Source: Elusimicrobiota bacterium (lineage in GTDB: Bacteria > CG03 > SLGR01 > JAFGSA01). Taken from it: a DNA stretch of 41,823 nt. The position numbers and the translations under genes were made by a program. Below, one piece after another: positions 13,692 to 37,867 of the stretch. The stretch is from positions 1 through 41,823 of the forward strand of contig JAFGSA010000066.1 in NCBI GenBank assembly GCA_016934855.1. Reading direction: 5' to 3'. The notes beneath the pieces are model-generated. The model worked only from the letters and a program-made list of their open reading frames with translations, was not told where the DNA came from and did no database searches. Each line of letters begins with the position of its first letter. Position 1 is the first letter of the stretch.

Positions 13692-13766
<75 letters not shown>

Positions 13767-13828
13767 GAAATCACCAGGTGAGGTATAAAGGGGATCGAAG
13801 GGAAATAGCCGCTCCCTGAGGGAGAAGA

Positions 13829-13943
13829 GGCCGGAGGCCGGAAGGTTATTTCCCCGGCTCCGAGAGAGCAGGAGAAAGGGGAGCGAACGAGGAGTATCCC
13901 CGTCTCCCCTGCACCGCGAGGGGCGCAGGGCGCGGCCGCTCCA
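13829..13943 (+). repeat. Repeat unit B: U block (~13829-13898) fused to a tRNA-Gly 3'-end copy (atccccgtctccc...gctccagaaatc). A 28-nt hairpin-forming insert interrupts the acceptor-strand copy
   Basis: atccccgtctccc and gctccagaaatc match the last nucleotides of tRNA-Gly, including 7 nt of its 3' flank. The insert cctgcaccgcgaggggcgcagg can form a CCTGC/GCAGG stem. Confidence 0.55.
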
Positions 13944-14030
13944 GAAATCTCAGAGTGAGAGATATATTAGGGGATAGAAGCCTTACGCGCGCATGCTGAG
14001 CATAAAAAGCACGGAGTGCGAAGGCAGATA

Positions 14031-14120
14031 AGGCCGGCTCCGAGAGAGCAGGAGAAAAGGGGCGAGCGAGGAGTATCCCCGTTTCCCCTGCACCACACGG
14101 GATGCAGGACACGGCCGCTA
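14031..14120 (+). repeat. Repeat unit C: a second U block plus a diverged tRNA-Gly 3'-end copy. It is about 85% identical to unit B over ~65 nt
   Basis: ggccggctccgagagagcaggagaaaaggggcgagcgaggagtatccccgtttcccctgcacc. The CCTGC/GCAGG stem is conserved with a different loop (accacacgggat). Confidence 0.55.
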
Positions 14121-14126
14121 CATGAA

Positions 14127-14212
14127 TTTAGTTGAAGGTTGAATGTGGAAAGTGGAAAGTTGCTTGGTAAGGAAGAATTTCATTTAACATTACACTTTCC
14201 ATATTAAACTGT
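14127..14212 (+). repeat. E2 repeat copy 2, immediately upstream of tRNA-Pro(GGG). It probably contains the tRNA promoter
   Basis: Homologous to 86-170. It includes the TTACAC-like block attacactttccatatt. Confidence 0.5.
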
Positions 14213-14296: not shown

Positions 14297-14488
14297 TTCT
14301 TTGTACCGCTGGCAGCGGAAACATGCCCGGCAGAGGACCATCCATCACGGTCATCAGAGAAAAACCCGCAAAAAAGGCCGGAAACCCGGAGAAAACACCT
14401 TCCGAAGGCCGGATATACCGGGATTTGACAGGCACATATTAAAATGCTAGAATAAAAAAGGATTATTGGGAATATTCTGTATAACAAG

Positions 14489-16078
14489 ATGCAGAAATTA
14501 CTTAACCAGAACATCAAAAAGATACTTGTCGTTGAAGACGATGAGCTCATCAATAACACCATCGTGGACTGCCTTAAGGTTGAAGGATTCAACACCGATT
14601 ATACCGATGACGCCGAGAAGGCTCTTTGGCTGATAAATTATAACGCGTACGATCTGGTCATAACTGACTTGAAACTGCCGGGATTGAGCGGTATGGACAT
14701 CGTAAAAGCTGTGAAAAAGAAGGATCCTTCATGCAGGACAATAATAATCACTGCGTACGGCACGATTGATTCCCAGGTCGAAGCCATTAAGGCGGGTGCG
14801 GAAGATTTTATAATAAAACCCTTCAATATAGAGGAGTTCACCGCGAAGATCGCGGGGTGCATGAAAAAACCCGCTAAAACCGTTCCCGGAGACGAAAACC
14901 GCAAAAAGAACATACTTAAAAAGACGAAAGAAAAAACCGGTGAGCTGGTGTTATACACGAATCTTAATATCCTCATGGAATATGCATGCGATCTGCTCGA
15001 GGCGCAGGGGGGATCTCTTTTGCTGAACAAGGAAGGGTTCCTTGAAGTCAAGGCTGTTTCGGACGCTTTCCGCGACGATCTGTTGGGAAAAAAGGTGTCT
15101 CCGGAAGGCGGTATCTTCTGTGAAGTAATAAAGGCCGGGAAACCACTTCTTATCACAGAAGATATTAATAATGTTTTCTTTAACGGTTTCAGGGAATCTG
15201 CCAAAGTCAACAGCTGCATCTGTATCCCGATCTCAGACAAAGACAGGTGTTTCGGGCTTCTCAACCTCTGCAGGACAGGAGAGAACTATTTCAACAGCGA
15301 AGACCTGGAAGTTGCCGGATATTTTTCGGACAACATACTTACTGCCATAAGAGCCAGCGAAGCCGAAGCCGAGCTGGAGAAAGCAAAGAACAGCCTGGAG
15401 ATATCAAGCAGGCAGCTGGAGGCTTTTACCAAGGCGGCTGCTAACGACCTCCAGGAACCTTTGCGCCGGGTGGTCAGCTTCCTTCAGCTTATCGAAACAA
15501 GATACAAGGACAAACTCGATGCAAGCGGAAGCGAATTCATCGAGTATGCCGTGAGCGGCGCAAAGCTGATGAAGACCATGGTGGAGAGGCTCCTGGAATA
15601 TTCCAAGCTGGGGAGAAAGGATTCACCGACGGAAGAAGTTGATTTTAACGCGGTACTGGACCAGGTAAAGAGCATGTTCGGGCCGGAAATAAAGGCTGCC
15701 GAGGCGGAAGTAGTCGCGGATGTCCTGCCCGTAATGGAGCTTAACAGGGCGGATATCCATCATCTTTTCAAGCACCTGTTATCGAATTCCATAAATTTCA
15801 GGGGAGACGAAAAACTGGAGATCACCGTATCTGCTATGGATAACGGGAAAGAATGGTATTTCTGCGTCAAAGATAACGGGATGGGATTCAATATGAAGGA
15901 TAAGGAAAAGATATTCGGGATGTTCAACCGCCTGTATGAGCAGAAAATACTCAGCCAGACCGGGATGGGGCTTGCCATATGCAAAAAGATAATAGAGAAC
16001 GCGGGAGGAAAGATATGGGCCGAATCCGTAATCGGGGAGGGGACTTCCATATATTTTACTATACCTCACAAAAAGTAA
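14489..16078 (+). CDS. Hybrid signalling protein REC-GAF-HisKA-HATPase. The H-box histidine is replaced by asparagine
   Basis: REC domain (ILVVEDDE...DLVITDLKLPG...IKPF); GAF domain; DHp domain FTKAAANDLQEPLRRV versus the consensus sHELRTPL; catalytic N box (HHLFKHLLSNSINF), G1 (DNGMGF) and G2 (GMGLA). Confidence 0.8.
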   Translation: MQKLLNQNIKKILVVEDDELINNTIVDCLKVEGFNTDYTDDAEKALWLINYNAYDLVITDLKLPGLSGMDIVKAVKKKDPSCRTIIITAYGTIDSQVEAIKAGAEDFIIKPFNIEEFTAKIAGCMKKPAKTVPGDENRKKNILKKTKEKTGELVLYTNLNILMEYACDLLEAQGGSLLLNKEGFLEVKAVSDAFRDDLLGKKVSPEGGIFCEVIKAGKPLLITEDINNVFFNGFRESAKVNSCICIPISDKDRCFGLLNLCRTGENYFNSEDLEVAGYFSDNILTAIRASEAEAELEKAKNSLEISSRQLEAFTKAAANDLQEPLRRVVSFLQLIETRYKDKLDASGSEFIEYAVSGAKLMKTMVERLLEYSKLGRKDSPTEEVDFNAVLDQVKSMFGPEIKAAEAEVVADVLPVMELNRADIHHLFKHLLSNSINFRGDEKLEITVSAMDNGKEWYFCVKDNGMGFNMKDKEKIFGMFNRLYEQKILSQTGMGLAICKKIIENAGGKIWAESVIGEGTSIYFTIPHKK

Positions 16079-16330: not shown

Positions 16331-17827
16331 ATGAAAACAAGGTTACTTCTGGCAGGGGCAATATGTTCTTTTCTGATCTTGCTCTCCGGCACAACGGCAA
16401 ATGCGGCAACCTGGTACCCGCTAACGACAAACGGTTTCGGTGATGAATACAATGAGACTGTGTACCCGGGCGGGGTATTCAACGATATGATATTCATAGG
16501 GACAAACCATCCGTACGGAGGCGAAATCTGGTATTCCTCGGAAGGTTCCAGTTTCAGCCTTTCTACGGAAGGCGGTATGGGAGATTCGGCCAACATGACA
16601 GTGCAGGTGATGCCGGAAGCCCCCTGGGGGGATCTGTTCGCCCACACCTATAACAACAACGGCGCGGAGATATGGAAGAGTGAAACGGGCCTGCCGGGCT
16701 CGTGGACCCAGGTGCAGGTGAACGGGAGCAGCTACAACGGTCTCGACGGAGGCACTGACAATGTCGCGCTGTGGGGATGGTCTAACGATGACGGCACCGT
16801 ATTCATGGGCACCGAGAACAACGGTACGAACGGATGCGAAGTGTGGTATACTCCGGACGGCATAAACTGGACGAGGAATGCCACTGGCAGCGTTGATTTC
16901 GGATGCAATTCTCACACTATCGCAATACCCGGCCCCGTATTCGGCACCCGTATTTTCTGCGGTACTTTCAGATCATATAACTACGGTTCCAGTCTTTTCT
17001 GCAGGGACGAACTTGTCGGCGCTACTGTTTATTCAAGCGACTGGACCACCAAGGATACCGGCGGTTTCGGGGATACCAATAACGACCAGGTCATCCTGTC
17101 CCCTCAGAGTTTCGGCGATCAGCTTTACGCGGGAACCATGAACGATGATACGGGCTGCGAAATATGGCGGACTGAGGACGGGGAAACATGGGAACAGGTA
17201 AACGAGGACGGATTCGGAGACCCCAATAACTGGGAGATAACATCGTTCTGCATACCCGGTGACGGATACATATATGCCGCGACGAGCAACAGCAGCACCG
17301 GCGGCGAGATATGGCGTTCTGAGGACGGGGAGACCTGGGAAAAAGTGGAAGGTACTGAAGGCGGTTTCGGAGACGCGCATAACACGTCCGTATATCTTTC
17401 CATGGGGACATATAACGATCATATGTACGCCGGCACCCATAACTATAACGGCGGGGGGCATCTATATATGATGTCCATTGAGGGAGAACCCCCGGTAGAT
17501 CCGAATACAAAGGCCGAGGGTCAGGATGAAGAAATACAGGCGACAAAAGCCGGCGAAATAGTCGTCGTAGGGTCGACAGAGCGCGAAGGCGTTATTAATC
17601 CTGACAAGGGTGATCCTATAGTAGTTGATTTCAGGGGCAAGAAACCCGGTAAATATACCCTGAGAATATTCACGATGCTCGGCGAACTCGTATATGACGA
17701 GACAAAGAGCTCGATAAGCGGCGGAAGATTTTCCTGGATACCCAAGAACCTGGCTTCAGGTATATACATAGCGCACGTAGAGGGTCCCGGATTAAACATC
17801 CAGAAGAAAATAGCGATAATTAGATAA
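16331..17827 (+). CDS. Secreted beta-propeller-repeat protein (BNR / ELWxxDGT-like repeats G.EIW.S.DGETW) with a C-terminal T9SS-type or FlgD-Ig-like sorting domain
   Basis: Signal peptide ending ANA-AT. At least 6 repeats (GGEIWYSSEG, GAEIWKSETG, GCEVWYTPDG, GCEIWRTEDGETW, GGEIWRSEDGETW). C-terminal ~80 aa reads GKYTLRIF...SGIYIAHVEG...KKIAIIR. Confidence 0.65.
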   Translation: MKTRLLLAGAICSFLILLSGTTANAATWYPLTTNGFGDEYNETVYPGGVFNDMIFIGTNHPYGGEIWYSSEGSSFSLSTEGGMGDSANMTVQVMPEAPWGDLFAHTYNNNGAEIWKSETGLPGSWTQVQVNGSSYNGLDGGTDNVALWGWSNDDGTVFMGTENNGTNGCEVWYTPDGINWTRNATGSVDFGCNSHTIAIPGPVFGTRIFCGTFRSYNYGSSLFCRDELVGATVYSSDWTTKDTGGFGDTNNDQVILSPQSFGDQLYAGTMNDDTGCEIWRTEDGETWEQVNEDGFGDPNNWEITSFCIPGDGYIYAATSNSSTGGEIWRSEDGETWEKVEGTEGGFGDAHNTSVYLSMGTYNDHMYAGTHNYNGGGHLYMMSIEGEPPVDPNTKAEGQDEEIQATKAGEIVVVGSTEREGVINPDKGDPIVVDFRGKKPGKYTLRIFTMLGELVYDETKSSISGGRFSWIPKNLASGIYIAHVEGPGLNIQKKIAIIR

Positions 17828-17855: not shown

Positions 17856-18779
17856 ATGCTTAAAAAATATTTGTTAACTTTGGTTGTCCTGATTACTTCG
17901 ACTGGGGTGTGTTTTTCCGGCAAGGTTGGAAAGACAGGCTGGTCCGTATTCAGGAAGGCGCGGTCAGCGAAATTCAAGCCGATAACGGTAACGCCCGTAA
18001 TGGCGGTCCGAGGAGACCTCTCCGGGGCTTTCTATAATCCCGCGGTGCTCGCGATGAATATACGCAAGGAGATATTCTTCCTTTCCGAGCTCGGGATTAC
18101 CGATGATATGTTCGGAGGAGTAGTCTACGGACACCCGCTTAAGGATTCTGCCATAGCCGGCGGAATAATATATTACGATGCGGGAGAAATAGAGCTCAAC
18201 TGGCTTGATAGAGACGGGGATCTGCAGTCAGAGGAGGTCTCTGCCCAGAAGGACGTGCTCGGGCTTGTGTCCTACGGGCGCAAAGTAAGAGATAACATAT
18301 GTCTCGGCGGTACCGTAAAATTCGCGACCAGTAAACTCGTCGAAAGAGAATCGGCGAATGCCTATGCCTTCGACGTGGGCGCGCTGTACCTCCCGAAAAA
18401 ATACGAGAATTTGAGCCTTACCGGTTCACTCCAGAACCTGGGTATGTCTACAAAGTTCGTCGATAAAGCCAACCCGCTGCCCGTATCGGCATTTGTCGGG
18501 GCGGGGTACTGGTATGACCTGAGCAACGACTATTACCTGACGCCGGGATTCGATTTTACTTATCTCGTCGCTGAAGAGAGGGTCGTTCCCGAACTGGGTT
18601 TTGAGCTGGGCAGAGACCCGATGTCTATAAATTTCGGGTACCAGTTCACGTCTGAAGGAGCCTGGCATCTGGGCTTTACGCTCCTTAAGAACGATTACGA
18701 TATAGCGTATGCTTATCTGCCCGGTCTGAGACTGGAATCTACCCACAGGATAAGCGTAGGAGTAAGGTTCGGCAAGTAA
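17856..18779 (+). CDS. Outer-membrane beta-barrel protein, FadL/PorV-like, containing an NPA motif
   Basis: Signal peptide (MLKKYLLTLVVLITSTGVCFS), an N-terminal FYNPAVLA motif (FadL hatch NPA-like), alternating amphipathic strands, and an aromatic-rich C-terminus. Sits next to the CTD cargo gene. Confidence 0.5.
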   Translation: MLKKYLLTLVVLITSTGVCFSGKVGKTGWSVFRKARSAKFKPITVTPVMAVRGDLSGAFYNPAVLAMNIRKEIFFLSELGITDDMFGGVVYGHPLKDSAIAGGIIYYDAGEIELNWLDRDGDLQSEEVSAQKDVLGLVSYGRKVRDNICLGGTVKFATSKLVERESANAYAFDVGALYLPKKYENLSLTGSLQNLGMSTKFVDKANPLPVSAFVGAGYWYDLSNDYYLTPGFDFTYLVAEERVVPELGFELGRDPMSINFGYQFTSEGAWHLGFTLLKNDYDIAYAYLPGLRLESTHRISVGVRFGK

Positions 18780-18913: not shown

Positions 18914-21073
18914 CTACTTTGTTTTCAGTTCCCAGACCCCGTTCCAGTCGTCGGCAGGCGGTTCGGATTTATACTTTTTGCATCTTGAGAGATAGGTGAC
19001 GGAAGGCCCGTCTTCTGGCAGGATTTTTAACGCTTCTTCGAAAAGCCTTATGCCTTCGTCCCATTTGCGGGTCTTGTAGCATTTCAATCCTTCACTGTAA
19101 AGGGCAAGGACTTTTTCCTTGTCGGGAGAAAGGCTGCCTTTTACGGCCATAACTTCATATACGTGAACGGGTTTCTTCTTGCCTTTCACCCGCAGAGCGT
19201 CAAGCTCCCGGAATTCGATATCGTTTTCCACCTGGGCCTTAGTGAACTCGCTCATCATTATACAGGTGCCGTATTCCTTGTTGGCAGATTCCAGCCGGGC
19301 GCCCAGGTTTACCGAATCTCCCATGACAGTGTAGTCCATCCTCGTCTTCGATCCCATGTTCCCGACTATCATCGGCCCGGTGTTTATCCCGATGCGCATG
19401 CTCAGCGGGGGACGGCCTTCTTCTTTCCATTTTACCTGCAACTGCCCGAGCTTTTTCTGGCAGTCCAGGGAAGCTTTGCAGCATCTCAGCGCGTGGTCAT
19501 GCTGGTCCACCGGAGCGTTCCAGAACGCCATTATGGCGTCGCCCTCATACTTGTCCAGCGTACCTTCGTAATCGAATATTATATGCGTCATGGCTTCCAG
19601 GTATTCGTTTATGAGATGGACAAGGTCTTCCGGCTCGAGCGATTCGGATATAGTAGTGAAGCCCGAAAGGTCAGAGAAATACACGGTCATCTCCCTGCGT
19701 TCGCCGCCGAGAGTCAGGGAAGAAGGGTCTTTCAGTATCTTGGTGACTACCGACGGCGTTATATACGTGGAGAACACGTTCTTTATCCATTTTTTCTCCT
19801 TCTCTTCGGTGGCGTACTTATAGAAGACCAGGAACAGGTCTGTGAGGAATATGACCATGAGGGGGTAGACTATTATGATGCTCAGGCCGTGCTTAATAAA
19901 CAGATAATAATTGACGACAAGGTATAGTATGAAGATCATGAATGTATAGATTATGCTCCTGACGGGAGTGAGCCTCGGCAGAAGAAAACCCATGAAGATC
20001 CCCAGGAATATCAATAAAAGGATATTCTGGGACCTTGTAGTGTGGCTGATGAAGCTGCCTGTCAGGATGTTGTCGAATACTGTGGCGTGAACTCCCACGA
20101 TGGGATCCACGTTTGAGAAAGGAGTGGGCCCGACATCAAAAGACCCTGTGGCTGCCATGCCTATAAAGACGACCTTATCCTTGAAATCCACAAGGTCTAT
20201 GACGGGTTTATCCCCTCTTTTTAACTGCTCGTATGCCTGTATAATATCGGAGTATGAATGACTCCTGAAGGACTGTATGGAGCCGCTGTAATTAGCGGTG
20301 ATCTGTATATAATCGTTGACCGGTATCTTTATCGGTTTCCTGGTCTGCCCGGGGAAATTGATTATTACATATTTTTCCGGGATCACTTCTATGTCTTCAA
20401 GCCGCGCGCCCAGGTAATCGCAGGCCATTTTGAACGAGATAAGCGGGTATATCCTGTGCATGTACCATATGAACAGTAGAGCTCTCCTGTAAACACCGTC
20501 TTCGTCGGGGGCGCCGTTCACAAAACCGGATCCTTTTACCACGCCGAGTATGCCTCCGAACGGCAGGGTGACATCGTAACATTCGAAATAGGTATCCGGG
20601 TCTTCGTTGGGAATACCGAAGCTGTGAAAGAGCGGATTGAGCGACTGCGGTTTTTCCGTCGCCATGGGGAAGTAAAAGGGGAAATATACGTTCCCGGCTC
20701 TCCGGGCGGAATCTATGAGTTTCTTGTCGTCCTGGGGGAACAGGTTATCGGGTTCGGGAAAAAGGACATCGAAAAATACCGCGTATGCGCCGTATTCGGA
20801 AAGTATGTCTATCAGCTTTGCATGTATATTCCTTCTCCAGGGCCATTTCCCGAATGCGCCGAGGCTCGCGTCGTCTATAGCGACGATCCTGATAGGTGAC
20901 TCCGCTTCCTTCTGCCCCCTGAACTTGAACCTGAGGTCATACAGGTTGAGTTCGACTCTTTCCAGTATATTATACTGGTAGAATATTATCAGCAAAACGG
21001 TTACAAGAAGGCTGATTATCACGCCGGGCAGAAACCTGCGGAGCGTATCGTGAGTCTTTTTCATGATTTGCAA
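18914..21073 (-). CDS. CHASE2-domain membrane adenylate/guanylate cyclase with a C-terminal TPR-like tail
   Basis: N-terminal CHASE2 (IVAIDDASLG..WPWRR), transmembrane helices, a class III cyclase domain (FSDLSGFT...GDAIMAFW...GINTGPMIVGNMGS), and a TPR-like C-terminus. Confidence 0.85.
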   Translation of the reverse strand: MQIMKKTHDTLRRFLPGVIISLLVTVLLIIFYQYNILERVELNLYDLRFKFRGQKEAESPIRIVAIDDASLGAFGKWPWRRNIHAKLIDILSEYGAYAVFFDVLFPEPDNLFPQDDKKLIDSARRAGNVYFPFYFPMATEKPQSLNPLFHSFGIPNEDPDTYFECYDVTLPFGGILGVVKGSGFVNGAPDEDGVYRRALLFIWYMHRIYPLISFKMACDYLGARLEDIEVIPEKYVIINFPGQTRKPIKIPVNDYIQITANYSGSIQSFRSHSYSDIIQAYEQLKRGDKPVIDLVDFKDKVVFIGMAATGSFDVGPTPFSNVDPIVGVHATVFDNILTGSFISHTTRSQNILLLIFLGIFMGFLLPRLTPVRSIIYTFMIFILYLVVNYYLFIKHGLSIIIVYPLMVIFLTDLFLVFYKYATEEKEKKWIKNVFSTYITPSVVTKILKDPSSLTLGGERREMTVYFSDLSGFTTISESLEPEDLVHLINEYLEAMTHIIFDYEGTLDKYEGDAIMAFWNAPVDQHDHALRCCKASLDCQKKLGQLQVKWKEEGRPPLSMRIGINTGPMIVGNMGSKTRMDYTVMGDSVNLGARLESANKEYGTCIMMSEFTKAQVENDIEFRELDALRVKGKKKPVHVYEVMAVKGSLSPDKEKVLALYSEGLKCYKTRKWDEGIRLFEEALKILPEDGPSVTYLSRCKKYKSEPPADDWNGVWELKTK

Positions 21074-23417: not shown

Positions 23418-23780
23418 ATGAACGGAAAAATACTTGTTGTAGATGATGATGCGGCTCTTAACGAGCTTATAAGGGACACCCTGGAGTTCGCAGGTTACGC
23501 TACTGTGCCTGTTTTTGACGGCGACAGGGTTATAGACGCCGCGGTATCGGAGAAACCCGACCTTATCCTCCTGGACCTGACACTGCCGAACGTCAGGGGG
23601 GAAGACCTGTACCGGCGCATCAGGCAGATGCCTGAAATAAGCGGGATACCGGTTCTTCTTATGACGGCCAATATCCCCCGGGAGCTCCTGGAGTCAGGTA
23701 TCAGGAAGGAGGATGTTGTTTCCAAGCCGATAGATTTCAAGGCGCTCAAAGCAAGGATATCGAAGCTTGTTTCCTTGTAA
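23418..23780 (+). CDS. Single-domain response regulator (REC only)
   Basis: ILVVDDD...DLILLDLTLP...K; 120 aa with no output domain. Confidence 0.8.
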   Translation: MNGKILVVDDDAALNELIRDTLEFAGYATVPVFDGDRVIDAAVSEKPDLILLDLTLPNVRGEDLYRRIRQMPEISGIPVLLMTANIPRELLESGIRKEDVVSKPIDFKALKARISKLVSL

Positions 23781-28918: not shown

Positions 28919-31201
28919 TTACTCTGTTTGCGAGGGATGGCTGTTTTTTCGCCTGTTAATGCCGTTCACCGGATTTTCTATAGACGCGAATATCCTGTAA
29001 AGCGCGCTGCTCTTGGCGCTCGTAAGTATCCTGTGCCTGTTGGATTTGTCCGCAAGGAACTTCGAGATTTCGGCTATATATTGAAGATAAGACTCATTGC
29101 CTTCGGTGGGGATCAGGGTGAGTATGAATATCCTGGAAGGCTTCTTGTCGAGCGCATTGAACTCCACGCCGTCTCTGCTCACTCCGACGGCCGATATCAG
29201 GTGCCGTATACCCGCGGACCGCGCATGCGGTAAAGCTATTCCGTACTGCATCCCTGTCGACATCGACTTTTCCCGTTCGAAGACGGCGCTGACAGTATTT
29301 TCCTTTTCCTCCGGGGCCAGATAGCCGGCTTTGACTATGGTTTCTATGAGTTCGGAAATAATATCCCGTGGGCTTTTCCCTTTGAGCCAGGAAGTGACGG
29401 TTCCAGGCCTTATTATATTTCTTATGTGCATGCGCCTGGTTCCCCCGGGGACGGCGGACTTGAGTATCTGCATGCCTATGGCGTCCCTGTCTATACTGGT
29501 CTGAAGAGACCTGACGGTGTATTCCAGGTCGGCTATTATCTCGTAGAACAGCGTATGCACGAAAGCCTCGTCGGGCCTCCTGCATTCGAATATAAGTTCC
29601 GACGGGTCATACTGCAGAGTAAGTGAAGTGTCTTCCTTGCGTATCTGAAAAAGGGTGTAGGGGATCTCCATGCGATATACATAAAATCCCTCGTCTTCAA
29701 ATGCACTGATGACCCTGCTGAGCACCATCTCGGCGGTCTGCTGGTTCGGCATGGGATAGCGTATCTTCGCGTGCTCGACCGGCGACTGCGCCTCTTTTTT
29801 CAGTATGGGTTTTTCACTGGTAATCATTCTCGAAAGGAGTCCCGGAGTGATAAGGGTGGTTAAAAATACCATAGTGACAGTGACGCTGAATATCTCATGC
29901 GGTATGATCCCCTGCGAAAGGCCTATCCCCGCGATTATCAGGGCTACCTCGCTCCTGGGGACCATGCCTATTCCCACCGTAGCCGCTCCGTGCAGACTGA
30001 AATTTAAAAGATACGCAGGCAGACCGCAGCCCAGGTATTTGCTTGCAAAGGCCACAACGAAATAGGCTGCGCCGAAAATAAGAGTATTCCATCCGGCCAT
30101 CTCCCTGAAATTCACGAACATCCCCATGGTGCAGAAGAATACCGGAACCAGGAAACGCTGGAGTACCGATATGTTTTCGCGTATCATGAAAGAGAGATCG
30201 GATTTCGACAGGCTGAGCCCCATGACATACGCGCCGATTATCATGGCAAGCCCCGACTTTTCGAATATTCCCGAAAGCAGCAGTGCAAAAGAGAAACTCA
30301 TTATTGATATTGTCACCTTGTCGCGGAACTTCTTAAGGAAGCGCTCGATATGCCTGTAAAATATAACGCCGGCCACGGTAAAACCCAGCCATATGCCGAC
30401 GGCTTTAGCCGAGATGGCTGCCACCTGGCCCCACATAACATGGCCGCTCTTGATGATGCCTATTACCACGGCAAGAGCTATTATCCCAAGAACATCGTCA
30501 ATTACGGCGGCTGAGATGATGGTTATGCCTTCGGGGGAATCCATCTTCCTCTTTTCGGAGAGGATCCTCGCGCTAATTCCAACGGAGGTAGCGGTGGTTA
30601 TTATGCCCAGAAACATAGGCACGGGGTGCAGGAATCCGTAGAATTTCCCGAAAACGGTCCGGGAAAAAAGCATTCCTGTTATATCGCCGAAAATAAAACT
30701 GAAAATGACGCCCGATATGCCTACCATGGTCGATACGAATGAAAAAGACAGGAATGTATCGATATTCGTTTCGATGCCGGCGATGAAAAGGAGTATTATG
30801 GCTGCGAGTGTCGTTATGCTGTACAGTTCCCTGGATACCGGGAGCCCGTCGCTGATGGGGAAGAACCCGCCGGGGAAGCCCGGCAGAGGAATACTGCCTA
30901 AAAGATACGGCCCCAGTATTATGCCCGCGAATATTTCGCCGAGCACTCCGGGCATTTTCATGCGCTCGAAGAGACGGCCGCTGGCCCAGGCGGCGAGAAC
31001 CATAACCCCGAGCTGCATGACCATCTGGGCTATCCCTGAGTTGAGATTATCTGCGCCGCCGTTTTCGGCGGCAGAAACTGATCGTAATGCGAGCAGTAAG
31101 AAGGCGGGCAGTATCGCGTAGCGGAGCCAGCCGCGAAATTCGCCTGGACTTGTTCTGCCGGTTTCAGCCGATATGGTTTTATGTGTATATCCCAAAATCA
31201 T
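28919..31201 (-). CDS. CPA2-family cation:proton antiporter fused to a C-terminal PTS EIIA type-2 (PtsN-like) domain
   Basis: MKMPGVLGEIFAGIILGPYLLG is an NhaP/Kef-type N-terminus with ~12 transmembrane helices. The C-terminus has GIALPHAR (the EIIA-2 His motif). The start is uncertain: the ATG at 31201 is preferred (AGGTAG upstream), but the ORF is open to 31273. Confidence 0.75.
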   Translation of the reverse strand: MILGYTHKTISAETGRTSPGEFRGWLRYAILPAFLLLALRSVSAAENGGADNLNSGIAQMVMQLGVMVLAAWASGRLFERMKMPGVLGEIFAGIILGPYLLGSIPLPGFPGGFFPISDGLPVSRELYSITTLAAIILLFIAGIETNIDTFLSFSFVSTMVGISGVIFSFIFGDITGMLFSRTVFGKFYGFLHPVPMFLGIITTATSVGISARILSEKRKMDSPEGITIISAAVIDDVLGIIALAVVIGIIKSGHVMWGQVAAISAKAVGIWLGFTVAGVIFYRHIERFLKKFRDKVTISIMSFSFALLLSGIFEKSGLAMIIGAYVMGLSLSKSDLSFMIRENISVLQRFLVPVFFCTMGMFVNFREMAGWNTLIFGAAYFVVAFASKYLGCGLPAYLLNFSLHGAATVGIGMVPRSEVALIIAGIGLSQGIIPHEIFSVTVTMVFLTTLITPGLLSRMITSEKPILKKEAQSPVEHAKIRYPMPNQQTAEMVLSRVISAFEDEGFYVYRMEIPYTLFQIRKEDTSLTLQYDPSELIFECRRPDEAFVHTLFYEIIADLEYTVRSLQTSIDRDAIGMQILKSAVPGGTRRMHIRNIIRPGTVTSWLKGKSPRDIISELIETIVKAGYLAPEEKENTVSAVFEREKSMSTGMQYGIALPHARSAGIRHLISAVGVSRDGVEFNALDKKPSRIFILTLIPTEGNESYLQYIAEISKFLADKSNRHRILTSAKSSALYRIFASIENPVNGINRRKNSHPSQTE

Positions 31202-31502
31202 TAATATATCTACCTTAATACGTTTTTCAAATATGCCGTTTATGTATTTTCTGTTTCCGAATATATTAAACAAAATAGCGAAAAAGTCAAAAATATATTA
31301 CGGAGATGTTTCTCATCGGCCCCGAAAAGATAAATAAACAAAGATGTCCGGCGTTCAAGACTGCAGTATAAAGCGGATAAAATAGATAATACAAATCCCT
31401 GACGGTTTTCCCTTAAAAGCCCGGACTGCATGCAGGAATCCTTTTACGCATATTTTACGCCGTTTTCTAAATAAATACATATATATGCGGTATAATATAC
31501 CT

Positions 31503-34813: not shown

Positions 34814-36010
34814 ATGAAAGAAAAACCGAAGACAGTAAAACAGCTTGAAGGAGAAATATCAGAGCTCAGGGTAAAGCTGGAGCAGGCGAATTCCGAGAAC
34901 AGGAAATCCGAAGAAAGGCACAGGGAATCCGAAGAACGCTATAAGGATTTCATCGAAAGCGCCAGGTATGCCATTTTCACGACAGACGTTAACGGCGTCA
35001 TAACTTCGCTTAATCCCCATTTCGAGAAACTGACGGGCTGGAACTGCGCTGAATGGATAGGTAAGGATTTCTCGGATATAATACATCCCGAAGACAGGAT
35101 TTCTTCCGTGGAGTCTTTTATAAGGCTGATGAAAGGGTATGAAGACCCCTTCATAGAGCTCAGGGTGCTGACAAAGTCGGGTAAGTACATCATAGGGGAG
35201 TTCAAATCCACCTTGCTCAAGCAGAACGGGGAAGTCATAGGCGCTCACGGGATAGCTCATGACGTGACGGAGCGTAAAGAAAACGCGGAGAAACTGAAAA
35301 AGTACAGGGACAAGCTCCAGGAACTGGTAAACGATCAGATGAAAGAGCTCATAAAGACGAACGAACAGCTTTACAGGGAGATAAACGAGAGGAAAGATAC
35401 AGAGAAGAAACTCCAGACAAGTCTTTCGAATTTCAAGAAAAGCCTTACGGGCACGGTCAACGCCCTGGGGGCCGCTGTCGAAAAAAGGGATCCGTATACT
35501 TCGGGCCACCAGCTGAGAGTAGCCAGGCTCGCCTGCGAAATTGCGAGGGAGATGAGACTCTCGGAACAGGAAATAGACGGCATCCGTATCGCGAGCCTCC
35601 TGCATGACATCGGGAAGATCACTGTCCCTGCCGAGATACTCAGCAAGCCCGGCGTATTGACAGAGCTGGAATACAACCTTATCAAGAACCACTCGAGGAT
35701 AGGCTATGAGATATTGAGCGAGATAGAGTTCCCCTGGCCGATCGCGGATATAGTCTTCCAGCATCATGAAAGGATAGACGGCTCGGGGTATTCCCAGGGG
35801 CTGTACAGGGATCAGATAATGATCGAGGCCAGGATCCTGAGCGTAGCAGACGTTGTCGAAGCAATGTCTTCTCACAGGCCTTACAGGCCCATCAGGGGGC
35901 TGGACAAGGCTTTAAAAGAGATATCCAACAACAAGGGAGTCCTTTATGACGAAAAAGTCGTAGAGGCCTGTTTAAGAGTCTTTATCGAGAAAGGTTTTCA
36001 GTTCGAGTAG
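34814..36010 (+). CDS. Coiled-coil / PAS / HD-GYP-type phosphodiesterase, with a GYS variant of the GYP motif
   Basis: PAS domain (TTDVNGVITSLNPHFEKLTGW); HD residues (LLHDIGKI); HHERIDGSGYSQGL. Confidence 0.8.
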   Translation: MKEKPKTVKQLEGEISELRVKLEQANSENRKSEERHRESEERYKDFIESARYAIFTTDVNGVITSLNPHFEKLTGWNCAEWIGKDFSDIIHPEDRISSVESFIRLMKGYEDPFIELRVLTKSGKYIIGEFKSTLLKQNGEVIGAHGIAHDVTERKENAEKLKKYRDKLQELVNDQMKELIKTNEQLYREINERKDTEKKLQTSLSNFKKSLTGTVNALGAAVEKRDPYTSGHQLRVARLACEIAREMRLSEQEIDGIRIASLLHDIGKITVPAEILSKPGVLTELEYNLIKNHSRIGYEILSEIEFPWPIADIVFQHHERIDGSGYSQGLYRDQIMIEARILSVADVVEAMSSHRPYRPIRGLDKALKEISNNKGVLYDEKVVEACLRVFIEKGFQFE

Positions 36011-36941
36011 GGATATCCCTGCCGGCGAGCAGCTTTTTCGTAAATCCGTATAGCAGAAAAACAGATATCAAGGTATGGAGCAGGTAACATAAGAGGGATA
36101 TCAGTATCCCCGCACTGAGGAGCCGCTCCGTGTCCGCAATCCCCGCGAAGAAAACCATTACGGCCGCTTCCCTGGTGCCTACGCCCGAGACTGTTACTGG
36201 TATGTTCGTAATGAGCACGGTAAGCGGGATGAAAACAGCCAGGCGCGGAAATATCACGTCTATGTCCAGTGACCCGAATATCAGTCCCGCCGCGAGTATG
36301 AATGAGGCCTGGAAGACTATTCCCGAAAAAAACATAACAAGCTTCTGAGCCGCTGATATATCCGCGGCGATATCCCCGGGCGCATAATGTTCTGCGCGGG
36401 AAAAACGCAGGGCTTTCCGGAAGATTACAGCCATCGGTCCTGAAACAAAGTATATCATGGCTATAAGAACCAGTGCGGCAAGGATTTTTACAGTAACCGG
36501 GATTCGGAAAAAGACAAAACCTGCATAAATACAGGAAAATATGCCGAGTGAACTGTATGCTTTGTCGAGCACTATGGAGTATATCGACTTGATGACGGGA
36601 AAGCCGTTGTTTCTTTTCAGGTAGAGAGGAAGAGCGAGAGTGCCTATCTTAAGGGGTATGATCGAACGCACAGGCCGGCTGCCCATGAAGAGGAACAGCG
36701 TTTCCCTGAAACTTATGCCGCAGCCGGTCGCCCTGAGTATATAGTGCCACCTGTAAGCGGCAAAAATATTATTGAAAAAAAGGGATACCGCTACGGCGGG
36801 CAGGATGAGAGACATCCTGGCGGAGATTAGATGGTCTATGAATAACCGTGGCTGGATGTTTCTGAACAGCAGGCAGATTATGGCGGAACTCACCGCAAGG
36901 GGAAGCAGTATTTTAAAAATTTTTGCAAACCGGCCGGACAT
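35982..36941 (-). CDS. UPF0104 / lysylphosphatidylglycerol-synthase-TM-region-like (flippase-like) membrane protein
   Basis: 319 aa with ~8 transmembrane helices and an N-terminus typical of the TIGR00374 family. It lies downstream of a REC-only gene on the same strand. Confidence 0.5.
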   Translation of the reverse strand: MSGRFAKIFKILLPLAVSSAIICLLFRNIQPRLFIDHLISARMSLILPAVAVSLFFNNIFAAYRWHYILRATGCGISFRETLFLFMGSRPVRSIIPLKIGTLALPLYLKRNNGFPVIKSIYSIVLDKAYSSLGIFSCIYAGFVFFRIPVTVKILAALVLIAMIYFVSGPMAVIFRKALRFSRAEHYAPGDIAADISAAQKLVMFFSGIVFQASFILAAGLIFGSLDIDVIFPRLAVFIPLTVLITNIPVTVSGVGTREAAVMVFFAGIADTERLLSAGILISLLCYLLHTLISVFLLYGFTKKLLAGRDIPTRTENLSR

Positions 36942-36958
36942 GCGAGGGAACTTTCCTT

Positions 36959-37351
36959 TTACAGGTCTATCCCCAGGAGATCGGAAACCTTCATTTTAAG
37001 GCGGTCCCAGTCAAGCGGTTTTATCAGGTAATCGTCGGCTCCGCATTTGAATCCTTTGTCGATATCGGGGGATTTTCCCATTCCTGTGAGGAGGATTATA
37101 GGTATTTTATGAGTCGAAGGGTCTTTTTTCAGTATCCTGCAGACGTTGAATCCGTCGATGTCGGGTATGTTGAGATCGAGTATGATCAGGTCGGGTTTAT
37201 TTTTTTTTGCGATCTCTACAGCTTTAAAGCCGCTTTCTTCGGTAAGTATCCTGAACCCCCAGCTTTCGAATATCAGGCTGGCAGTGTCTTTAACACCCTG
37301 TTCATCGTCAACTATCAGTACGGTTTTGTTTTTCCTAAGGTTGAATATCAC
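36959..37351 (-). CDS. Single-domain response regulator (REC only)
   Basis: VLIVDDE...DLIILDLNIPD...K; 130 aa. Confidence 0.8.
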   Translation of the reverse strand: MIFNLRKNKTVLIVDDEQGVKDTASLIFESWGFRILTEESGFKAVEIAKKNKPDLIILDLNIPDIDGFNVCRILKKDPSTHKIPIILLTGMGKSPDIDKGFKCGADDYLIKPLDWDRLKMKVSDLLGIDL

Positions 37352-37474
37352 AAAGAAATTTTAGATACTTTTAAGCTTAAAATCAAGAGAGCACCGGCAG
37401 GGAAGGAGCATCGTTTGATTTTACGTACAAAAAAATATAAAATTCATTAAACTCTTTCGAGTGCGGAGGAAAAT

Positions 37475-37867
37475 GTGCCCAATAAGAAAATACTTATAAT
37501 AGAGGATGACAGGAACGTCAACGAAGTGATAAAGGAAAATCTCCGGGCGGAAGGATACCTGACAGTGTCGGCATATGACGGGGCGCAGGCAACGCAGTAC
37601 GCGAATTCTGAAAAACCGGACCTGATTACGCTCGATATAAACATGCCTGCAGGAAAAGGCGACGTGATATATGAAAGGCTGAAGAAGCTCGAGACTACCA
37701 GGAATATACCGGTCATAATAATAACCGCACAATCACCGGAAAACATGGAAAAGATCATTGTTGATAAAAATATCAGAAAAGAAGATATTTTTTACAAGCC
37801 TATCAGGTTTGAAAAACTTCTGGAAAAGATAAACATGTATCTGGGGGGCAGAGAAGGAGCCTCCTGA
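37475..37867 (+). CDS. Single-domain response regulator (REC only), with a GTG start
   Basis: ILIIEDD...DLITLDINMP...K. GGAGG lies 5 nt upstream of the GTG at 37475. Confidence 0.8.
   Translation: MPNKKILIIEDDRNVNEVIKENLRAEGYLTVSAYDGAQATQYANSEKPDLITLDINMPAGKGDVIYERLKKLETTRNIPVIIITAQSPENMEKIIVDKNIRKEDIFYKPIRFEKLLEKINMYLGGREGAS

Follow-up and report, generated by a model that had tools for sequence, protein, structure and literature searches.

Plant phytochrome and ethylene receptors are kinases that lack the acceptor histidine. The same residue is missing from several proteins described in bacteria. DivL of Caulobacter has a tyrosine in its place (PMC4211667). PsmA of Streptomyces has Glu, Asp, Gln, Val or Tyr at this position and has also lost the D/ExxT/N phosphatase motif (PMC12963549). 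Caulobacter CCNA_03265 has no aligned histidine, and a nearby histidine was proposed as the alternative acceptor (PMC11481889). The results presented here concern MBN2407901.1, a protein encoded on contig JAFGSA010000066.1 from a metagenome-assembled genome (MAG) of an uncultured Elusimicrobia bacterium; the window analyzed is the complete contig of 41,823 bp. MBN2407901.1 has an asparagine where the acceptor histidine is expected and, judged from its sequence, is probably a kinase-dead phosphatase or scaffold.

DrBphP, the bacteriophytochrome of Deinococcus radiodurans, has no autokinase or phosphotransfer activity (Multamaki et al., PMC8292422). It is a light-activated, ATP-dependent phosphatase of its response regulator. 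Phosphatase activity requires Glu at position H+4, counted from the acceptor; Gln is tolerated at this position, and Thr, Asn or Asp abolish activity. Arg at H+7 is needed for binding of the response regulator. The first Asn of the N-box normally pairs with the acidic residue at H+1 and takes part in phosphoryl transfer (PMC8292422). Mutants in which the acceptor histidine was replaced in the laboratory provide a second point of reference. NRII-H139N (NtrB) functions as a phosphatase only (10.1101/122606). CrdS-H371A is kinase-dead and shortens CrdA~P's half-life from 53.5 to 2.6 min, compared to 0.7 min for the wild type, and EnvZ is similar (PMC3510030). A P376A substitution strongly lowers phosphatase activity (PMC3510030). 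The functional roles assigned below to H+1, H+4 and H+7 are taken from PMC8292422 and PMC3510030.

The NCBI annotation of MBN2407901.1 reads only "response regulator". An earlier note on this DNA, made from the letters of the window, proposed the domain order receiver, GAF, DHp, CA, and the Pfam assignments bear it out. The gene and its parts are as follows.

14489..16078, plus strand: whole open reading frame, REC-GAF-DHp(Asn)-CA, 529 amino acids, identical to NCBI MBN2407901.1.
14522..14851, plus strand: receiver domain (REC), residues 12-121; Pfam PF00072, 94.1 bits; aligned with CheY; predicted local distance difference test (pLDDT) of about 96.
14963..15349, plus strand: GAF domain, residues 159-287; Pfam GAF (PF01590) at 44.4 bits, cut-off 22.4, and GAF_2 (PF13185) at 43.1 bits, cut-off 28.6.
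15416..15613, plus strand: HisKA-type DHp domain, residues 310-375; Pfam HisKA (PF00512); modeled helices 270-338 and 345-373.
15437..15466, plus strand: H-box A317-A-N-D-L-Q-E-P-L-R326; Asp320 (H+1), Glu323 (H+4), Pro324 (H+5) and Arg326 (H+7) kept, the Ser before the His position being Ala318.
15443..15445, plus strand: codon AAC for Asn319 at the acceptor His position, one transversion away from CAC.
15749..16072, plus strand: HATPase_c (CA) domain, residues 421-528; Pfam PF02518, 79.6 bits; pLDDT 93-98 except for the ATP lid, residues 482-490.
15761..15796, plus strand: degenerate N-box H425-L-F-K-H429-L-L-S-N433-S-I-N436; first Asn is His, Mg-binding Asn retained, Lys is Asn.
15872..15886, plus strand: G1 box D462-N-G464-M-G466, whole (DxGxG).
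15950..15973, plus strand: ATP lid and G2 box L488-S-Q490-T-G492-M-G494-L495; lid Tyr is Leu, first Gly is Gln, core GxGL retained; lid of low model confidence.

The active site of REC is whole in an alignment with CheY, with the acidic pair E16/D17, the phospho-acceptor D60, T88, F107 and K110. The Pfam HisKA score is 26.7 bits in the full protein, compared to a curated cut-off of 26.9, and 30.6 bits for the isolated segment. Homology to kinases is secure, with an E value of 1.9e-34 to the solved kinase 8f71. An AlphaFold2 model built from 53 aligned sequences has block-mean pLDDT values of about 93-98 in REC and CA and about 79-94 in DHp. The ATP lid (482-490) is the only disordered part of the modeled kinase core, and the N-terminal half of GAF is also of low confidence. 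The last helix of GAF continues unbroken into helix 1 of DHp as the single modeled helix 270-338. A search of PDB sequences for a clue to the GAF ligand matched only 3e0y, a generic GAF domain without an assigned function.

The proposal that an asparagine occupies the autophosphorylation position in the HisKA register is confirmed. Asn319, within the H-box AANDLQEPL (residues 317-325), is column-aligned by phmmer with the phospho-histidine of 8f71, of the bacteriophytochromes 9ys3 and 8uph, and of DrBphP (8sgk). By hmmscan coordinates it corresponds to position 11 of the Pfam HisKA model. When Asn319 is replaced with histidine in silico (N319H), the isolated segment scores 38.5 bits against HisKA instead of 30.6, a gain that a near-invariant column would be expected to give. 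The acidic residue at H+1, which serves as the general base, is present as Asp320. The objection raised in the earlier note was that a conserved histidine might lie elsewhere in DHp, as in a HisKA_3 or HWE register. All histidines of the protein are at positions 424, 425, 429 and 527, so residues 1-423, and hence DHp, have none, and the HisKA_2, HisKA_3 and HWE profiles do not match the protein even at E<=10. The alternative register is therefore excluded. MBN2407901.1 has a histidine-kinase fold without the acceptor histidine, which is a feature of histidine pseudokinases.

MBN2407901.1 belongs to the very large "ASHDLQEPLR" / "HDLQEPL" subfamily (Cph1/bacteriophytochrome-type HisKA). Every recognized H-box has the histidine in the best 119 homologs from a word-index search and in the best 147 from HMMER, run exhaustively against 1.84 billion representatives (266 in total). 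No ortholog was found, either by the word-index search of 5.8 billion clustered proteins or by the exhaustive scan of the 1.84 billion representatives, in which the runner-up scored 313 bits compared to 1175 bits for the protein itself. Identity of homologs to MBN2407901.1 is at most 40-45% in the kinase core and about 30-31% over the full length. The protein is a singleton in a cluster look-up, and a look-up of the contig by exact sequence gave no record. Two of the closest homologs (P0003 and P0004) each contain two ASHDLQEPL H-boxes, and so have tandem kinase cores in one polypeptide.

The departure from the family is not limited to the acceptor position. The DHp-CA region was aligned with 117 homologs, and the 79 columns conserved in at least 85% of the sequences were treated as near-invariant. 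MBN2407901.1 departs from the consensus at 21 of the 79, whereas other family members, each left out in turn, deviate at a mean of 3.9 columns (standard deviation 3.2, maximum 15). In the same test with 95 receiver domains, REC of MBN2407901.1 deviates at one of 11 columns, which is within the normal range (0.8 +/- 1.1). The degeneration is confined to the kinase core. The earlier note had described the N, G1 and G2 boxes as intact. This is correct for G1, for the Mg-binding N433 and for the G2 core G492-x-G494-L495, but four other conserved residues of these boxes and the lid are replaced. At the first N-box Asn, which all of the 117 homologs have, MBN2407901.1 carries His429; Asn436 takes the place of the N-box Lys (97% of the family), Gln490 that of the first G2 Gly (99%) and Leu488 that of the lid Tyr (95%). 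Further deviating columns include Ser318Ala, beside the His position, and Arg360Leu. Unaltered are Asp320, Glu323, Pro324, Arg326, Asn433, D462/G464/G466, F476/F479/R481 and G492/G494/L495.

Since a single-nucleotide change separates AAC from CAC, the gene could be decaying or non-functional, the base at 15443 could be a single-nucleotide polymorphism that marks a loss-of-function allele in the population, or CAC could have been read as AAC through a base-calling or assembly error. As a singleton of one MAG contig, the protein has no ortholog from which conservation could be read, and many conserved columns of its kinase core are altered, as they would be under relaxed constraint. However, neither a lone sequencing error nor a very recent point mutation can explain the pattern, because 20 other near-invariant columns deviate, including the neighboring S318A; sequencing error as the sole explanation is ruled out. 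The 529 codons are uninterrupted, REC is fully conserved, the flank of the H-box is whole, as are G1 and the Asn that binds Mg, and the fold is predicted with confidence. Moreover, the changes of the first N-box Asn and of the Lys match those of DrBphP, a functional kinase-dead phosphatase, and Asn at the acceptor position is held by selection in other clades, as described below. Decay or error is considered quite unlikely.

The reading favored here is that MBN2407901.1 is a long-established kinase-dead member of the HisKA family that most likely dephosphorylates response regulators, with its own REC and GAF domains as the gate. A probability of roughly 0.45 is assigned to this reading. The claim of the earlier note that the protein cannot autophosphorylate canonically is supported by the absence of the acceptor histidine, and it is strengthened by the additional losses H429, N436, Q490, L488 and A318. 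Two of these, H429 and the lost Lys, are as in DrBphP. The numbering of 8sgk is offset by 14 from native DrBphP, such that H546, H547, E550 and R553 are native H532, H533, E536 and R539. In the offset-corrected alignment, His429 lies opposite DrBphP His648, Asn433 lies opposite the Mg-binding Asn, and Asn436 lies opposite Thr655. The note had listed a phosphatase, a pseudokinase or scaffold, and a non-canonical phosphorylation site as the options. The resemblance to DrBphP favors the first of these, and the last is the least supported. The uninterrupted reading frame, a promoter-like site of its own and the confident model of REC, DHp and CA are also counted as consistent with a phosphatase. 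Reversion of Asn319 to histidine alone would probably not restore autophosphorylation, because His429, Asn436 and Gln490 degrade the N-box and the G2 box.

On this reading, MBN2407901.1 would not autophosphorylate. A response regulator in its phosphorylated form would dock on the kept surface of DHp, with Glu at H+4, Pro at H+5 (P324 is retained) and Arg at H+7, and would most likely be dephosphorylated there. As a natural protein, MBN2407901.1 would be the counterpart of two phosphatases, the engineered NtrB-H139N, which has no other activity, and the kinase-dead DrBphP. Phosphorylation of D60 in the protein's receiver by another kinase, together with binding of a ligand to GAF, may set the conformation of DHp through the continuous GAF-to-DHp helix and thereby gate the activity. 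Candidate substrates are the three stand-alone receivers encoded on the contig or the protein's own receiver.

Several points weigh against this model. PleC-H610A loses both kinase and phosphatase activities (PMC3510030). The phosphatase activity of HK853 depends on His chemistry; in HK853 and EnvZ, the His contributes and nucleotide stimulates (PMC7005713). The K436N, G490Q and Y488L changes may weaken the binding of nucleotide, which the phosphatase needs or is stimulated by (PMC8292422, PMC7005713). Retention of DLQEPLR is by itself weakly significant, since with 21 of 79 columns deviating the chance of seven successive retentions is about 0.1. Neither a response regulator nor a kinase is in an operon with the gene. 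Without an ortholog, the conservation of Asn319, for which the 20 other deviating near-invariant columns speak indirectly, cannot be demonstrated and the substitution cannot be dated.

The same changes in the CA domain bear on a second possibility, that MBN2407901.1 is a non-catalytic pseudokinase or scaffold like DivL or PsmA. Its dead DHp-CA core would bind a phosphorylated single-domain receiver or another kinase, the latter as a heterodimer like that of RetS with GacS, and relay the binding without phosphatase chemistry. DivL (PMC4211667) and PsmA (PMC12963549) are established precedents. Moreover, MBN2407901.1 is the most degenerate of the Asn variants known from the scan described below; it alone carries K436N, G490Q, Y488L and R360L, a sign that nucleotide-dependent catalysis may have been lost altogether. 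There are also three single-domain receivers on the contig that could be bound. However, PsmA is without the D/ExxT/N motif, whereas MBN2407901.1 has the complete H-box flank of its subfamily, with both Glu at H+4 and Arg at H+7. A pure scaffold would have no use for the Mg-binding Asn, for G1 or for the core of G2, all of which are retained. No partner shares an operon with the gene. A scaffold is the main alternative, if somewhat unlikely.

Because CA keeps G1, the core of G2 and the Asn that binds Mg, it may still bind ATP, and MBN2407901.1 could in principle remain a kinase with a non-canonical acceptor. The acceptor would be another residue in cis, the histidine of a partner kinase in a heterodimer, or a Ser/Thr of a target as with the GHKL anti-sigma kinases. 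The nearby histidine proposed for Caulobacter CCNA_03265 (PMC11481889) is a precedent for such an acceptor. However, DHp of MBN2407901.1 lies within the histidine-free residues 1-423. The N-box lacks both its Lys and its first Asn, the latter described as a participant in phosphoryl transfer (PMC8292422), and Gln stands at the first Gly of G2. In DrBphP, the analogous N-box His goes with a complete lack of kinase activity. It is very unlikely that MBN2407901.1 functions as a kinase of this type.

Replacement of the acceptor His by Asn also occurs in other kinases of the subfamily. A scan at the DNA level for A-x-N-D-L-Q-E-P-L-R covered one genome for each GTDB species as well as the metagenomes collected by JGI. 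The scan produced 23 matches in genomes and 31 in metagenomes; about 12 and 16 of these, respectively, are genuine ASNDLQEPLR kinases, with partial overlap between the two sets. The Asn variants group by lineage into deltaproteobacterial PAS-kinases, a gammaproteobacterial clade, Bacteroidota CheB-CheR-PAS-kinases and several singletons, including a kinase with a transmembrane segment and a GAF domain (TM-GAF). Retention of DLQEPLR in these variants is not evidence, since the scan pattern demanded it; in MBN2407901.1, the retention does count.

The deltaproteobacterial PAS-DHp-CA clade (L004, L007, L013, L016 and L023 from genomes; L026, L038, L039, L045 and L051 from metagenomes) carries ASNDLQEPLRKIQILNDRI instead of a His-containing H-box. 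Its N, G1 and G2 boxes are whole, and its CA domain has a variable insertion. The Asn is retained down to 63% protein identity, and it has been maintained through synonymous change, since both AAC and AAT are used to encode it. In other clades than MBN2407901.1, selection demonstrably keeps Asn at the acceptor position. The gammaproteobacterial clade (L006, L019, L021, L049 and L054) is a second case in which the acceptor His and the first N-box Asn are lost together; the latter is His or Gln there, and Pro stands for the RLH His that is conserved in the family (position 483 of MBN2407901.1). The first N-box Asn is Glu in another Asn variant, L031. The Bacteroidota proteins (L018, L046, L047 and L048; about 935-1079 amino acids), one of which is from Flavobacterium zubiriense, carry AASNDLQEPLRKI and have the Asn-variant kinase core within a chemotaxis-methylation fusion protein. 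Overall, the first N-box Asn is lost in three of about seven independent Asn lineages, including MBN2407901.1, compared to none of 117 canonical homologs. A hypergeometric estimate for this co-loss gives p of about 1e-4, with the independence of lineages judged by eye.

The other ASNDLQEPLR kinases (L004-L054) are of the same subfamily as MBN2407901.1 and have the same His-to-Asn replacement. However, they have different sensor modules (PAS, TM-GAF or CheB-CheR-PAS), and none has an N-terminal REC or REC-GAF. They are 29-44% identical to MBN2407901.1, no nearer than canonical kinases are, and none has its K436N or G490Q. The His-to-Asn change in MBN2407901.1 therefore arose independently, and a shared origin with the other Asn kinases is ruled out. 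A broader proposal is that the natural His-to-Asn HisKA proteins of Elusimicrobia, deltaproteobacteria, gammaproteobacteria and Bacteroidota are convergent, selectively maintained phosphatases for phosphorylated response regulators and natural equivalents of NtrB-H139N. Asn would be specifically favored for its amide, which could take over from the imidazole the task of placing the hydrolytic water. In the Elusimicrobia protein, phosphorylation of the N-terminal REC would then switch the phosphatase and create a feed-forward node from kinase to phosphatase. This proposal is regarded as doubtful.

The surroundings of the gene contain one putative regulatory site and the three candidate partners already mentioned.

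14425..14453, plus strand: promoter-like site, near consensus with 11 of 12 matches (TTGACA-17-TAGAAT, extended TG), 36 nucleotides upstream of the ATG.
23418..23780, plus strand: stand-alone receiver, 120 amino acids, active site whole; candidate partner by context alone.
36959..37351, minus strand: stand-alone receiver, 130 amino acids, active site whole; candidate partner by context alone.
37475..37867, plus strand: stand-alone receiver, 130 amino acids, active site whole; candidate partner by context alone.

The promoter-like site suggests that the gene is transcribed on its own; the site is a consensus match only, and such sites are no more frequent in the region than expected from shuffled sequence. 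The gene is flanked upstream by tRNA-Pro and downstream by a 253-nucleotide gap and then a gene for a secreted protein. No operon partner was found. The earlier note also reported three orphan REC-only proteins without a cognate kinase. They are indeed present, and no other DHp or CA domain is encoded on the 41.8-kb contig, the range for which the statement is valid. The remaining genes of the contig are mostly housekeeping genes.

Some neighboring features are of separate note. The secreted repeat protein directly downstream (16331-17827, plus strand; 498 amino acids) matches the C-terminal sorting domain of type IX secretion only weakly and below threshold (20.1 bits compared to a cut-off of 27), and the open reading frame that follows it (17856-18779) has no Pfam match. 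A protein with CHASE2, adenylate/guanylate cyclase and TPR domains is encoded at 18914-21073 on the minus strand, 2.8 kb downstream of the GAF-containing gene, and a cyclic-nucleotide link between this cyclase and the GAF domain is conceivable. A PAS-HD protein (HD_5/HD-GYP-like; 34814-36010, plus strand) is encoded near the two divergent stand-alone receivers at 36959-37351 (minus strand) and 37475-37867 (plus strand). The 175-amino acid open reading frame at 36923-37450 (plus strand) is probably spurious, because it overlaps the receiver of the minus strand and matches nothing in Pfam. A Na+/H+ exchanger of 784 amino acids with a fused C-terminal PTS EIIA-2 domain is encoded at 28919-31273 on the minus strand.

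Upstream, tRNA-Gly(ccc) and tRNA-Pro(ggg) are separated by a spacer (13759-14127) that contains two direct repeat units of about 178-180 nucleotides, 71-81% identical. Each unit terminates in a copy of the 3' end of tRNA-Gly (...ATCCCCGTCTCCC...GCCGCTCCAGAAATC). The repeats may be scars left by integration at the tRNA, or decayed copies of tRNAs. An Rfam search of the contig found three tRNAs only, with no match for the spacer repeats. A 24-nucleotide inverted repeat, 83% complementary and with a 24-nucleotide spacer, lies at 14138-14209, directly upstream of tRNA-Pro(ggg).

Two-component systems are usually annotated by domain content, and MBN2407901.1 would count as a hybrid kinase in any census. 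Such censuses include kinase-dead members that, in the role of phosphatase, phosphate sink or scaffold, turn around or rewire the flow of signal one would expect. The value of this single gene is limited, since its host is uncultured, orthologs are lacking and no partner can be identified. A more interesting by-product than the protein itself are the Asn variants that recur under selection and have in part also lost the first N-box Asn. They are a possible natural source of phosphatase-only sensors and could be used to probe how far the acceptor histidine is needed for phosphatase chemistry.

Of the known proteins, DrBphP (PDB 8sgk/8avv) shares with MBN2407901.1 the HisKA subfamily, a His in place of the first N-box Asn (H648 and H429, respectively), loss of the Lys (T655 and N436), Glu at H+4 and Arg at H+7 (E323 and R326 in MBN2407901.1). 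The two differ at the acceptor position, where DrBphP keeps His532 and is followed by His at H+1, whereas MBN2407901.1 has Asn followed by Asp. DrBphP also keeps the first G2 Gly, which is Gln490 in MBN2407901.1, and it has a PAS-GAF-PHY sensor and a cognate response regulator, unlike the REC-GAF protein with no adjacent partner. The engineered His mutants (NtrB/NRII-H139N, CrdS-H371A and EnvZ) have lost kinase activity and largely kept phosphatase activity toward the cognate response regulator, and NRII-H139N has the same residue change as MBN2407901.1. However, these are laboratory point mutants of kinases that are otherwise intact and carry Thr or Asn at H+4, whereas MBN2407901.1 occurs in nature, has Glu there and shows additional degeneration of CA.

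DivL and PsmA have, like MBN2407901.1, the architecture of a histidine kinase without the acceptor histidine and with a degenerate CA domain, and they act by binding rather than by autophosphorylation (PMC4211667, PMC12963549). PsmA has lost the phosphatase motif of the H-box and the ATP-binding residues, whereas the H-box flank of MBN2407901.1 is whole. Both are conserved in defined clades and have known partners, DivK~P and CckA for DivL and DivIVA for PsmA; MBN2407901.1 differs in having Asn at the site, an N-terminal REC and no orthologs found. Kinases without the acceptor histidine (DivL, PsmA and CCNA_03265) and kinase-dead phosphatases (DrBphP) are thus already known, and MBN2407901.1 is a known kind of oddity and not a new system. 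It is distinctive in its REC-GAF architecture, which has not been described for such proteins, and in the Asn at the acceptor site.

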